Positions 3,774 through 8,937 are shown, counted from the first letter of the stretch. The stretch: 64,000 bases of DNA from Patescibacteria group bacterium (GCA_028866135.1 JAGWIS010000001.1:13357-77356), one strand, 5' to 3'. Notes: generated by a model not told the origin, from the sequence alone. A program made the numbers and translations.

Positions 3774-3898
3774 TCATTGTACTCCACCCAGAAGCCCCGC
3801 TTGCTCGCGAAAGTAATGGGCCTAAAAACCAACCAGAACGAGGGGTTTCGGTACTGGTTCCTGGCTCATAGCCCCCTTATAATGGTACATAACTATTT

Positions 3899-4441
3899 AT
3901 GTACGAAATCGAACATCGCGCAGTACTCACCGAAGCAGCCTACAAGGAGCTGTCTGAGAAATTGGCGCGAAAGGCAACATTGTTGGGGGCTGACGATAAA
4001 GAGGTTTCCTACTATATTTTCCCTGATAAGCTCCTGAAGGTTGTACGAAATATCTCAAAAGGTAATGCGAAACTGTCTTTGAAGCTAAATCCACTTGGAG
4101 CAGGCTCGTCATTCCAGGAATTTGAAGTTCCCTTCCCCGAGGACTCGTTCGAGACGATGAAGAATATCTGCGCTGGCATTAGCGCTCCGGACCAAATAAT
4201 CAGCGGCACACAAAAACGTACAAACTATGAATACCAAGGGATCGAAATAGCTCTTAAGTGGAGTGAGGATTGGGGTTATCATGCTGAATTCGAAATCATG
4301 ATTTCTGACCAATCAGAAAAAGAAGCGGCTGATAATCGCATTCGAGAAGTAGCACGGACTTTTTCAGTACCGCTTATGACTGAAAAAGAGGTGGCAGCAT
4401 TTTCAGCCAAAGTCAGAGCAAAAAAGAAAGCTTCTAAGTAA
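3899..4441 (+). CDS. CYTH-domain protein (CyaB / thiamine-triphosphatase-like).
   Basis: It starts MYEIEHRAVL with the ExExK-like N-terminal signature of the CYTH fold, and is 180 aa. It is the first gene of the low-GC island. Confidence 0.45.
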   Translation: MYEIEHRAVLTEAAYKELSEKLARKATLLGADDKEVSYYIFPDKLLKVVRNISKGNAKLSLKLNPLGAGSSFQEFEVPFPEDSFETMKNICAGISAPDQIISGTQKRTNYEYQGIEIALKWSEDWGYHAEFEIMISDQSEKEAADNRIREVARTFSVPLMTEKEVAAFSAKVRAKKKASK

Positions 4442-4558
4442 TACTGCTGGTTGGGGCATCCCTAACGAGGTGTTTACGTATTTAAAAATTTGTACTACAC
4501 TGCGATTGTTACGAATAAGTTTGCGGTTTCTTGAGTTCAAATCTGGACTAAATAAACT

Positions 4559-5173
4559 ATGCATAACATACTAATTTTTGGAGATAGCATTGCGGCTGGA
4601 AGAAAAGTTGAGAAAATTAGATCGTGGCCTCTTTTGCTGTCTCAATATATTGACCGGGAAGACAAAGATTTCACTCTTGTCCATAATTTGAGCATTCCGG
4701 GGGAGACGACCAACGAAATTGTTAAGCGGTTTCCAACTGAAGCTGAAGCGAGATGTAAAAGAATATACCCCAACGACCATTCATCCATCATTTTCGCAGC
4801 GGGTATCAATGATACAAAAAGCGTCAAAGTCAGAGACGATTCCATTACAAACACAGAGGACTTCAAGAACAATATCGAGCTACTTATTGAGAATGCACGA
4901 AAGTGTACCGATCACATTATTTTTGTCGGTTTAACCCCAGTTGATGAAGGGAAAACGATACCAGCAGGCGACGCTTATTTTTTGAATGAACAAATAAAAT
5001 CTTACGAGAAAATTATCGATCGTATATGCAAGGAAAACAAGATTGGACTTTTAAGTATCATTGATGAATGGTTAACGATTGACTATATCCGGCTGTTATC
5101 GGATGACGGCATCCATCCTAATGAAATGGGGCATCAAAGAATTTTTGAAAAAATAAGACCTTTCTTTTCGTGA
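4559..5173 (+). CDS. SGNH/GDSL-family hydrolase.
   Basis: It has the N-terminal FGDSIAAG block and the C-terminal DGIHPN block. GC is very low (about 35%). Confidence 0.7.
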   Translation: MHNILIFGDSIAAGRKVEKIRSWPLLLSQYIDREDKDFTLVHNLSIPGETTNEIVKRFPTEAEARCKRIYPNDHSSIIFAAGINDTKSVKVRDDSITNTEDFKNNIELLIENARKCTDHIIFVGLTPVDEGKTIPAGDAYFLNEQIKSYEKIIDRICKENKIGLLSIIDEWLTIDYIRLLSDDGIHPNEMGHQRIFEKIRPFFS

Positions 5174-5176
5174 GTT

Positions 5177-7065: not shown

Positions 7066-7069
7066 AGTT

Positions 7070-7897
7070 TTAAAATCCGCTGCCACATTTTTCGCCAAGC
7101 AGAAATGCCTCATCGCCAACTCGTCCCCGGTTTCGAGCAAAAAGAATGACACTGTTTTTCCCAGTTTTCACCTCTTCCCCTCCATCCGTGCCAACGACCT
7201 GGCCCTTTTTTATTTCTTCAAAGTCGGCAAAGGGCTTCGACAAAGTAAAATTATCCGTCCTTGTGAAATACAAATCATACATACGAACATGCGATTGCCG
7301 CTTCGCCGCAATATCATTCGACAGGTGTCCTCTCGCCTTAAGAAAGGCAAAAATACTTTCCTCCGCAGTTTTGATCGATTCAGGACTCCCCAAGTACCCA
7401 CACTCAACACAGATACCGACTTTGCCGATGCTGTTCATGTAATAGTCGGTTCCGCCCGGCTGTACATCGTCAAATCCGGAAACGACCAGATCAACCGGCA
7501 AGTATTCTATAATCCCTTTTGCATTTGCTTCGCAAATCGCAAATACCTTGCTGTTTGGAGTGGAGCTTGCGTGGATATCCAAAAGTGCCTCGGCTTTGCC
7601 CAAATAGGTTTTTAGAAATTGAGCCCTCTGATATTCGTAGCTTTCTTTCTCCTTTTTCGAGAGCAGCTCATTATTTTTGAACATCCTGTTCAGATTAGTC
7701 TCCGTGTACCGCTTATTTGCCTCGATTGCGCGGGGATTTCCATAGCCAAACAGAACGTTTCCCTTCTCTATTTTGAGGCTCGGCAAAATCTTTTTCAGCG
7801 CCTCGACCCCGCACTGCTCATTGCCGTGTATACCGGCGAGAATGATGCTCGTCGGCCCCTCCTCTTTTCCTATCAGTTCTGTAATTTCTTCAGACAT
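7070..7897 (-). CDS. Succinylglutamate desuccinylase / aspartoacylase (AstE/AspA) family zinc hydrolase.
   Basis: It has the N-terminal GIHGNE motif typical of the AstE_AspA / M14-like fold, and is 275 aa. Confidence 0.6.
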   Translation of the reverse strand: MSEEITELIGKEEGPTSIILAGIHGNEQCGVEALKKILPSLKIEKGNVLFGYGNPRAIEANKRYTETNLNRMFKNNELLSKKEKESYEYQRAQFLKTYLGKAEALLDIHASSTPNSKVFAICEANAKGIIEYLPVDLVVSGFDDVQPGGTDYYMNSIGKVGICVECGYLGSPESIKTAEESIFAFLKARGHLSNDIAAKRQSHVRMYDLYFTRTDNFTLSKPFADFEEIKKGQVVGTDGGEEVKTGKNSVILFARNRGRVGDEAFLLGEKCGSGF

Positions 7898-7908
7898 ACT
7901 GCTAATGC

Positions 7909-8904
7909 TTATCCTGTGTGAAGAGGTTGGTCAAATAATTGAGGTTCTCGGATAAAAAAAGAAATCCGTTCGAGGTCGGCTTTCAGAAAAACGTCGGGAC
8001 GAGTATTCCCTAAAACATAATGTTCGTGCTCGATCCAGATACTATGAATTGACTTCAGATAGTATGCCCTGAGACCGCGCTCGATTTCATCATCTGGCAT
8101 TGGATATGATTCGAGATAGGCCCTCAGATAGAGCTCGGCGCGCCGGATGTCACCGTTTGTTGTCCCGCTGCTGAGCAAACTATACATAACCGAGCGAAAG
8201 AGTTCATACGACCTAGGCCCGTATTGAGTCTTTTCGAAATCAAAAACGTATTCCACGTTGTCCTGAGCATCAAAAAAGACATTGTGGTCAAGATAGTCGC
8301 CATGGAGCAGGTGGTCATTTGAAAGACGAAGTGAGTCGAAGGTCGTGGTGTTTTGTGTCGCGAGTTCCATTTTCAGACGCACGCTTCGAAGCGCCAACAT
8401 ATCAAAATCCGATGCGGCCGCTCCTTGTGGGATTTTCTCTAAAACGGCTGCCGCTTTTGCAAGGAAAATCTCTTTGTTCCACGGGTTGAACGTATTTTCG
8501 ATTGCAAGAGTACTGTCTCTGCCGCGTAGGTGAATCCGCGCAAGCATCTTCCCCATCGAAGAAATGGCCTGACTGGTTAATGCCTCTCGTTCCAAATGCC
8601 TTCCTGCGACAAACGGGAAAAGAGCATAGTAGTTAGTGTCATGGAGAAAGAATGTGTCTTGCGTGCGGGTGCGCAGCGGCAAGATAACTGGGATGTCACC
8701 GTCTGCAAAATACTGCTTGGCGAGATGGATTTCTTTTATTTTCTGCTCGTTATCAAAGCGATACTTCTTGAGGAAAAACTTGTCGCGTCCAGACATTATT
8801 ACGTAGTTCTCGCTCAATACGCCTTTTGCCACACGCTCTAAATTGGATGCCGCGGTCGGTAATTGATAGTAATCGGTTATATCCGTGAGAAGAGATTTGT
8901 TCAT
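7909..8904 (-). CDS. Phosphotransferase of the APH / choline-kinase / homoserine kinase II family.
   Basis: It has the Brenner catalytic motif HGDYLDHNVFFD and downstream DFE, and is 331 aa. Confidence 0.6.
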   Translation of the reverse strand: MNKSLLTDITDYYQLPTAASNLERVAKGVLSENYVIMSGRDKFFLKKYRFDNEQKIKEIHLAKQYFADGDIPVILPLRTRTQDTFFLHDTNYYALFPFVAGRHLEREALTSQAISSMGKMLARIHLRGRDSTLAIENTFNPWNKEIFLAKAAAVLEKIPQGAAASDFDMLALRSVRLKMELATQNTTTFDSLRLSNDHLLHGDYLDHNVFFDAQDNVEYVFDFEKTQYGPRSYELFRSVMYSLLSSGTTNGDIRRAELYLRAYLESYPMPDDEIERGLRAYYLKSIHSIWIEHEHYVLGNTRPDVFLKADLERISFFIREPQLFDQPLHTG

Positions 8905-8937
8905 GTGATCAAGCTTGGGAGCTTCGCTTTCAAGCGG

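Follow-up and report, generated by a model that had tools for sequence, protein, structure and literature searches.

Two full-length duplicates of the archaeal-type leucyl-tRNA synthetase (LeuRS), LeuRS-I of the Sulfolobaceae and LeuRS2 of the Halobacteria, show little or no tRNA aminoacylation. Both still bind tRNA-Leu and make leucyl-adenylate, and the CP1 domain of LeuRS-I is disrupted (PMC9437257). A 2022 review of the duplications of aminoacyl-tRNA synthetases (aaRSs) includes these two proteins and no LeuRS-derived aaRS-like enzyme (PMC9437257). SbzA, which resembles isoleucyl-tRNA synthetase (IleRS) and has HYGH and AMSKA motifs, is an aminoacyl transferase that uses Ile-tRNA as the donor and passes the amino acid to a small molecule (PMC12945691). 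GluQRS/YadB, a synthetase in truncated form, attaches an amino acid to a modified nucleoside (PMC9437257). Herein, we analyzed a stretch of 64,000 nt (the window) from a Patescibacteria group bacterium (GCA_028866135.1, JAGWIS010000001.1:13357-77356), in which a low-GC tract at positions 3780-8910 carries a LeuRS-like gene. An earlier note on this DNA had read the tract as one horizontally acquired island of seven genes, reminiscent of small-molecule or nucleotide modification, detoxification or immunity systems. Our results suggest that the tract is horizontally derived and that it is probably a three-part mosaic in a variable interval of a candidate phyla radiation (CPR) genome, not one system.

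Composition of the tract and the junction at 6780

The GC content was determined in 500-nt windows, and the tetranucleotide distance was determined in 2-kb windows against the rest of the 64-kb window. The GC content was 0.57-0.63 at positions 1501-4000, fell to 0.35-0.47 at 3751-8250, and returned to 0.53-0.57 at 8751-9500; elsewhere in the 64 kb it was mostly 0.55-0.66. In summary, the tract had a GC content of 0.37-0.47, compared with ~0.60 for the host. The GC content of third codon positions (GC3) was compared with that of 24 long host genes (0.764 ± 0.048; minimum, 0.68). The GC3 of the aminotransferase gene at the left end was 0.73. Within the tract, it was 0.44 for CYTH, 0.39 for GDSL, 0.35 for the LeuRS-like gene, 0.39 for the truncated NUDIX gene (NUDIX'), and 0.51 for both AstE and APH. 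The DUF1653 gene (0.78) and the adjoining 123-aa membrane gene (0.79) were host-like, indicating that the right-hand boundary previously placed at DUF1653 is correct. The tetranucleotide distance peaked at 4-7 kb (z = 15.7), and a milder deviation extended further right (z > 5 up to ~11.5 kb). The tetranucleotide correlation with the host was -0.04 for 4559-6780, 0.31 for 6781-8910 and 0.74 for 8911-11779, and the two host flanks correlated with each other at 0.95. The low-GC tract at 3780-8910 is real and far beyond chance, and the GC drop described in the earlier note was borne out by the 500-nt GC, GC3 and tetranucleotide scans. The gene families named there (CYTH, GDSL, NUDIX, AstE/AspA, APH, DUF1653 and a class I synthetase-like protein) were confirmed by Pfam and NCBIfam. 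Promoter and terminator scans yielded fewer sites than shuffled sequence and were uninformative.

Two of the seven genes turned out to be fragments. The 71-aa open reading frame (ORF) is present as a reading frame, but it is the N-terminal stump of a 264-266-aa S-adenosylmethionine (SAM)-dependent methyltransferase and not a gene in its own right. In tblastn comparisons, residues 1-61 of the 264-266-aa proteins of loci L001 and L005 matched positions 6597-6785 with 54-55% identity (1e-16 to 1e-17). The homology stopped at approximately codon 61 (6777-6779), ahead of the DIGCG SAM motif, which is lost. The NUDIX hydrolase does belong to its family and retains the box GX5EX7REVXEEXGL, but the gene is truncated and the fold is incomplete (~130 aa expected). 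Compared with the 140-aa protein of locus L094, it was 84% identical over residues 1-95 only, and the homology ended at 6781-6783. The last ~45 codons are a read-through into the antisense of the methyltransferase stump. Given that two convergent genes are cut at the same position within 2 nt, the site at ~6780 is, judging from these alignments, a scar of illegitimate recombination or deletion. A 15-nt palindrome, GGAAAGAAACTTTCC, was located on the junction at 6768-6782 by the hairpin scan. This may be a coincidence, or the palindrome may have taken part in the breakage or the joining.

The neighborhoods of the tract genes were compared in 108 loci, fetched with 10 kb on either side of marker genes; 29 of these were Kaiserbacteria/Paceibacterota loci with an aminotransferase/PaaK-like pair. 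The recurring adjacencies among the 108 loci were GDSL/LeuRS-like (with or without the methyltransferase), aminotransferase-CYTH, and NUDIX-AstE (L094/L095, in the other order). The left block (GDSL, LeuRS-like, methyltransferase) was joined to the right block (NUDIX, AstE, APH) in none of the 108. GDSL, LeuRS-like and APH genes stood beside the aminotransferase in none of the 29 relatives, where other odds and ends occupy the site. This absence and the strong compositional deviation support the horizontal acquisition proposed earlier.

CYTH orthologues with 80-84% amino acid identity were found divergently oriented beside the aminotransferase in L017, L018 and L026; thus, CYTH is no special cargo of this genome. 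HisG follows immediately after CYTH in L017. The GC3 of the copy studied here was 0.44, compared with 0.57-0.65 in the orthologues, whose genomes are less GC-rich than this host. Therefore, the CYTH copy here looks replaced.

The right block showed no conserved arrangement. We found 671 homologues of AstE; the top 120 were 63-76% identical, nearly all of 275 aa, and came from many Parcubacteria lineages, and their neighbors varied. Across the Parcubacteria, the deacylase is unusually uniform. In L039, L093, L094 and L096, AstE was 4-7 GC points under its surroundings. For APH, nine related loci were recovered from the JGI metagenome collection (26-56% identity). All were singletons, and in none of the nine was APH beside AstE, NUDIX or DUF1653. 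A conserved APH-AstE-NUDIX operon was considered and rejected: the neighbors of AstE vary, NUDIX precedes AstE in one lineage and in the other order, and APH is never adjacent. A defense-system reading was likewise rejected by PADLOC 2.0, which returned a generic NUDIX match (PDC-S07) only and none for CYTH, GDSL, LeuRS-like, AstE, APH or DUF1653; the suggestion of an immunity function in the earlier note is thus not supported.

The tract is composed of three parts. The first is CYTH, whose orthologue normally stands beside the aminotransferase. The second is a 2.2-kb fragment made up of GDSL, the LeuRS-like gene and 61 codons of the methyltransferase gene. The third is NUDIX'-AstE-APH, whose genes all have counterparts on other CPR-type contigs: those of AstE are very common, those of APH are rare, and a close homologue of NUDIX is present on one Parcubacteria contig. 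The coordinates are listed in Table 1.

Table 1. Features of the low-GC tract and of the interval that contains it (positions in the window).
Feature	Position	Strand	Basis
hisC-like class I/II aminotransferase, left anchor of the interval	2739..3773	-	Pfam Aminotran_1_2 6e-48; TIGR01141 hisC 2e-69, below its cutoff
CYTH-domain protein	3899..4441	+	Pfam CYTH 1.6e-6
SGNH/GDSL hydrolase, first cassette gene	4559..5173	+	Pfam Lipase_GDSL_2 1e-20; 45-64% identical to GDSL in L001-L008, L106, L107
LeuRS-derived pseudo-synthetase, 476 aa, archaeal-type Rossmann core and helical domain	5177..6607	+	NCBIfam PRK12300 1e-38
Stump of the third cassette gene (264-aa class I SAM methyltransferase)	6597..6812	+	Codons 1-~61 homologous, then 10 unrelated codons and stop
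NUDIX hydrolase truncated after codon 95, Nudix box intact	6643..7065	-	Pfam NUDIX profile positions 5-99 of 134
Recombination/deletion junction, two convergent truncated genes	6777..6783	.	Methyltransferase homology to ~6779, NUDIX homology to 6781
AstE/AspA-family zinc deacylase	7070..7897	-	Pfam AstE_AspA_cat 1.6e-24
APH-family small-molecule kinase (homoserine-kinase-II/CotS-like)	7909..8904	-	Pfam APH 3e-23
DUF1653 gene, right end of the low-GC tract	8938..9171	-	Pfam DUF1653 7e-29
123-aa membrane protein, conserved interval anchor	9179..9550	-	92% identical in L094/L095 (precedes NUDIX, AstE); 59% in L016
87-aa ORF (GC 0.40) and 171-aa GreA/GreB-C-terminal-like protein (GC 0.51), second atypical patch	9566..10341	-	
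DUF6629 membrane protein	10510-11160	+	Pfam; 77% identical, adjoins 123-aa gene in L094/L095
GNAT acetyltransferase	11176-11598	-	Pfam
Incomplete second copy of the 3' end of tRNA-Gln (T-loop, acceptor, CCA, 5 nt beyond), att-like remnant	11683..11711	-	32-nt repeat, 78% identity
tRNA-Gln(CTG), right anchor of the interval	11780..11853	-	ARAGORN; Rfam tRNA 56.7 bits; also at the matching interval end in L016, L094

The LeuRS-like family and its gene cassette

The GDSL and LeuRS-like genes are intact in the window and lie 3 nt apart. In L001-L008 and L106, the same two genes form a cassette with a methyltransferase gene, in the order GDSL-LeuRS-like-methyltransferase, with starts and stops that overlap or nearly abut. 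L108 carries LeuRS-like-methyltransferase without GDSL. The full-length cassette methyltransferase homologues have 256-271 aa and match FtsJ (1.5e-5) and Methyltransf_11 (6e-5), as class I SAM-dependent enzymes. The GC content of the cassette contigs was 0.31-0.46. The conserved co-occurrence that the earlier note had proposed to look for among the tract genes exists for GDSL, LeuRS-like and methyltransferase, on contigs of 31-46% GC, and in the 108 loci it does not extend to APH, NUDIX or AstE. We conclude that the 2.2 kb at 4559-~6780 are part of a cassette whose native lineages are CPR/DPANN-type and low in GC.

A transketolase gene was 0-3 genes from the LeuRS-like gene wherever the flank was readable (L001-L004, L006-L013, L106-L108). 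It may be convergent, co-directional or a few genes off, even between clades that are only 28-30% identical. In the Saccharibacteria-type loci, genes for guanylate kinase and an IMP-cyclohydrolase/MGS-like protein are present as well. No transketolase match was found anywhere in the 64-kb window. The copy studied here thus lacks both the third cassette gene, of which only the stump remains, and the transketolase. Since the scar leaves the cassette incomplete, it is probably not functional as a unit in this genome.

The partner genes differ among the clades of the LeuRS-like family that share 28-30% identity. In L009-L013, the LeuRS-like gene is followed by an overlapping radical SAM gene whose product matched MoaA (1e-30), prokaryotic viperin (5e-20) and PADLOC pVip (2e-19), all below the cutoffs; in L012 and L013, a GNAT gene lies upstream. 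In L107 (4037-9081), the LeuRS-like gene is followed by a gene for a 327-aa PP-loop ATPase (SGGKDS; weak match to QueC, 2.7e-5; N-terminal CxxC pairs) and then by GDSL, and a MoaA/viperin-like radical SAM gene homologous to that of L009-L013 is divergently oriented nearby. The L107 partner set is reminiscent of modified-nucleoside pathways.

The earlier note had labeled the synthetase-like protein as MetRS-like. We found that LeuRS is closer in both sequence and predicted fold. The archaeal LeuRS profile PRK12300 matched at 1e-38, compared with 1.7e-5 for the methionyl-tRNA synthetase (MetRS) profile TIGR00398 and 1e-4 for Pfam tRNA-synt_1g. An AlphaFold2 model (25 family members) had a mean pLDDT of 92.4. 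In Foldseek comparisons, the template-modeling (TM) score of this predicted model was 0.84-0.85 to archaeal and human LeuRS (0.85 to 1wkb of P. horikoshii) and 0.64-0.70 to MetRS.

HMMER aligned residues 4-160 with residues 33-182 of P. horikoshii LeuRS (1WKB) and residues 324-398 with residues 645-719. The family profile matched 850-1050-aa LeuRS in two stretches only, ~30-180 and ~450-780, indicating that neither the editing domain, CP1, nor the tRNA-binding domain at the C-terminus is present. LeuRS residues ~183-450 and those beyond ~780 had no counterpart, and the protein has 476 aa compared with 810-967 aa. Both signature motifs are degenerate. At the HIGH signature, the HVGH of 1WKB is SLSH here, and the last His alone is conserved in the family. 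At the KMSKS signature, the sequence is IDSAS here and (R/K)MSAS followed by KG in the family, and the second Lys is Ala throughout. The motifs SxxH, HYSG, DPMFDSE, EEHLKNW and MSASKG are invariant in the family.

The family is rare. In 5.8 billion proteins, it was represented by 44 clusters (90% identity). Among 1.84 billion proteins, ~28 short representatives (50% identity) scored 216-669 bits and were sharply separated from true LeuRS, which scored at most 196 bits; the nearest non-family matches of the profile were 850-1050-aa LeuRS sequences. The members came from metagenome-assembled genomes (MAGs) labeled Patescibacteria, Saccharibacteria, WS2 and Nanoarchaeota. Full-text literature searches, made in a partial library and thus not proof, found no description of this CPR LeuRS-like family. 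The family is small and distinct, and it has apparently not been described before.

Judging from its sequence, the LeuRS-like protein most likely does not charge tRNA for translation. A split or minimal functional LeuRS was considered and rejected, because both signature motifs are degenerate family-wide, the family is rare, and tailoring enzymes are encoded alongside. Like LeuRS-I and LeuRS2, the family would be an archaeal-type LeuRS paralogue apart from translation. Unlike them, its members have ~470 aa and neither CP1 nor the C-terminal domain, and they have lost the first His in HIGH and the second Lys in KMSKS; they also have dedicated partner genes and occur in CPR/DPANN-type genomes. 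The LeuRS of Mycoplasma mobile (3ziu) is also CP1-less and was among the top structural matches (TM, 0.64-0.67 to the predicted model). Unlike the family here, it is bacterial-type and a working LeuRS, with Leu-AMS in the active site of the crystal. The reuse of a class I synthetase core beside tailoring enzymes is known for SbzA, GluQRS/YadB and MshC, to which the family may be likened by analogy. The context (SGNH hydrolase, methyltransferase, radical SAM enzyme, PP-loop ATPase) is suggestive of a resemblance to SbzA/GluQRS-type transferases. The KMSKS of SbzA (AMSKA) is partly degenerate too; however, SbzA retains HYGH and the complete architecture of an IleRS.

From the gene context, the LeuRS-like protein, the SGNH hydrolase and the SAM-dependent enzyme of an intact cassette may act on a nucleotide, RNA or small-molecule substrate. 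We tentatively propose, as a possibility that we still regard as rather doubtful, that the ~470-aa CP1-less proteins are new non-charging aaRS-derived enzymes of CPR/DPANN-type lineages. Together with the SGNH hydrolase and a SAM-dependent or other partner (a class I methyltransferase, a MoaA/viperin-like radical SAM enzyme or a PP-loop ATPase), and encoded near transketolase, they would modify, for example aminoacylate, a nucleotide, an RNA or a metabolite derived from a sugar phosphate. The window would then hold a transferred, decaying copy.

The interval between the aminotransferase gene and tRNA-Gln

The host genome has ~60% GC and is Kaiserbacteria/Paceibacterota-like (CPR). The deposited protein that is identical to the greater part of the LeuRS-like ORF is encoded on a 79-kb contig of a MAG labeled Patescibacteria group bacterium, and its gene model starts at a later Met. 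Homologues of the aminotransferase in L014-L042, all Kaiserbacteria/Paceibacterota MAGs, were 45-77% identical; in almost all of them the gene for the PaaK/F390-like ligase comes next, and most share the gene after that too. The two genes of the window region 1156-3773, encoding the hisC-like aminotransferase and a 518-aa PaaK/coenzyme-F390-synthetase-like adenylating enzyme, are tightly paired in nearly all of the related CPR genomes, and the gene at 1-1133 usually accompanies the pair in L014-L042.

The other side of the aminotransferase varies. In L017, L018, L023, L026 and L042, it is occupied by 3-6 kb of unrelated small genes, including NUDIX, class II aldolase, HisG, a second CYTH, LD-carboxypeptidase, S51/C39 peptidases and GNAT, and some of these stretches are low-GC. 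In L015, L021 and L038, the neighbor is an ApbE-like gene. The ApbE-like gene of the window (35943-36716, beside tRNA-Met at 35663-35735) is 32 kb from the aminotransferase. This spacing indicates a large rearrangement, or an insertion of otherwise host-like DNA, at the same junction.

The frame of L016 is that of the window: tRNA-Gln(CTG), ~6.5 kb, the 123-aa membrane gene, 1.3 kb, and the aminotransferase. In L094/L095 (Parcubacteria Gr01-1014_49), tRNA-Gln(CTG) is followed by further genes, DUF6629 (77% identity), the 123-aa gene (92%), NUDIX (84%) and AstE (74%). The common frame is thus tRNA-Gln, DUF6629 or DUF1761, the 123-aa gene, and then either NUDIX-AstE (L094) or the aminotransferase (L016). 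At the same site, CYTH was present in three relatives and NUDIX/AstE were syntenic in L094; in this comparison, the relatives are only 45-77% identical in the aminotransferase. Given that the content differs between shared anchors in the relatives, the 8-kb interval from tRNA-Gln to the aminotransferase is a variable zone with conserved anchors.

The 87-aa ORF matched no family and is translationally coupled to the 171-aa protein, which combines a coiled-coil N-terminus with a GreA/GreB domain at the C-terminus. No homologue of either was found in the related loci, indicating that the pair is a separate small atypical insert of the same interval. Another atypical patch lies at 55000-59300 (GC, ~0.50; tetranucleotide z, 5-7) and encodes a Fur-family regulator, a ZIP zinc transporter, a YibE/F membrane protein and, in addition, two ORFs that matched no Pfam family.

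The earlier note had reported no flanking repeat or tRNA. No repeat pair flanks 3780-8910: apart from the tRNA duplicate described below, the direct and inverted repeats around it were short matches at chance level. However, tRNA-Gln and a duplicate of its 3' end lie 2.9 kb to the right of the tract. The duplicate comprises the last ~28 nt of the tRNA and 5 downstream nt and is located 92 nt downstream of the tRNA (copies at 11683-11711 and 11775-11803). The 12-mer CGACTTGGCTGC occurs in the window only at the tRNA-Gln 3' end and in the duplicate (0.01 expected). A strong GC hairpin lies between the two copies. The duplicate resembles an att-type remnant, left by an integrative element that has since been lost. 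Rfam over 1-14 kb returned the tRNA only, with no riboswitch or other RNA; the partial tRNA-like copy is not a gene.

We compared the tract with tRNA-associated genomic islands and plasticity zones. Like these, its composition is atypical, the interval ends at a tRNA with a duplicated 3' end, and the cargo differs between relatives. Of its content, GDSL, LeuRS-like and APH were absent beside the aminotransferase in the 29 relatives. Unlike tRNA-associated islands, the tract has neither a mobility gene nor bracketing repeats. The tRNA is 2.9 kb off, its partial copy is only 92 nt from it, and the tRNA-derived repeat does not bracket the tract, which is bounded by conserved anchor genes. Given these anchors, homologous replacement between relatives plus an illegitimate join fits better than site-specific integration. 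The tract is best described as a plasticity zone; an integrase and bracketing repeats, by which a genomic island is recognized, are missing.

Origin of the tract and what it means

The anchors (aminotransferase-CYTH on one side; the 123-aa gene with NUDIX and AstE on the other) are common to lower-GC relatives; therefore, replacement of the interval is the simplest history. The interval between the anchors would have been replaced or filled by homologous recombination with DNA of a lower-GC Parcubacteria relative, and the cassette fragment would already have been spliced into that donor DNA by an illegitimate event. Alternatively, separate insertions and a deletion may have occurred in this genome.

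The reading of the earlier note, in which the seven genes arrived as a single island and cooperate in modification, detoxification or immunity, is largely refuted, and we consider it very improbable. All seven genes do belong to enzyme families that act on small molecules or nucleotides, the composition is atypical throughout the tract with sharp ends at host-like genes, and GDSL, LeuRS-like and methyltransferase do form a conserved cassette. Nevertheless, the left and right blocks were never joined in the 108 loci, CYTH is the usual neighbor of the aminotransferase, and the homologues of AstE and APH have unrelated neighbors. Moreover, two genes are truncated at the scar, no PADLOC system was matched, and the GC3 differs between sub-blocks (0.35-0.39 versus 0.51). 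An assembly artefact, by which the low-GC segment or its 4.5-6.8 kb core would come from another lower-GC CPR organism in the same sample, appears unlikely, if less so than a single island. It would account for a sequence known from one metagenome-assembled contig only, for two genes cut at 6780 as a chimeric join would cut them, and for a composition at 4559-6780 that is uncorrelated with the host. However, the host-foreign-host pattern needs at least two joins in 5 kb, there is no long shared repeat at the joins, and each side shares synteny with relatives: on the left through aminotransferase-CYTH, and on the right through NUDIX/AstE, which lie close to the 123-aa gene and tRNA-Gln. Such synteny is consistent with a single real region of one chromosome.

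About equally unlikely is the absence of any recent transfer, with long-resident genes whose low GC is gene-specific and due to selection or expression. NUDIX and AstE are the lowest-GC genes in L094 too (0.43-0.44, compared with 0.54-0.56 for their neighbors), in four other contexts the GC content of AstE is lower than that of its locus by 4-7 points, and the homologues of CYTH, NUDIX and AstE are syntenic in relatives. In the window, however, the GC3 deficit amounts to 5-9 host standard deviations, which is far above an offset of 4-7 GC points, and the CYTH orthologues have a higher GC3 in lower-GC relatives. Furthermore, none of the 29 relatives has GDSL or LeuRS-like beside the aminotransferase, and only 44 members of the LeuRS-like family occur in 5.8 billion proteins. 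A three-part mosaic in a variable interval thus remains the reading we favor. Several points weigh against it. Given the synteny of CYTH, NUDIX and AstE in relatives, vertical inheritance, together with a low GC that is specific to the genes, could account for part of the tract. The window is from a single MAG contig and may include an assembly chimera. The nearest sampled cassette is only 61-63% identical and thus would not be that of the actual donor. No integrase, transposase or other mobility gene was matched by Pfam or NCBIfam in the ORFs at 3.8-11.9 kb. The order of events may have been different, and the DNA may have come in one arrival or several. The function proposed for the cassette is read from gene context only.

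As a genomic island, the tract is ordinary; its novelty is the decayed copy of an apparently undescribed aaRS-like cassette. The tract demonstrates DNA exchange and DNA loss at hot spots even in the very small genomes of the CPR, and it has kept a clean scar of illegitimate recombination. Given that the copy here is incomplete, the family is better studied in other genomes that carry intact cassettes. If the family has a non-translational activity, it would be a new branch in the reuse of synthetase cores, beside GluQRS, MshC, SbzA and the cyclodipeptide synthases, and this in hosts with a poorly understood metabolism.

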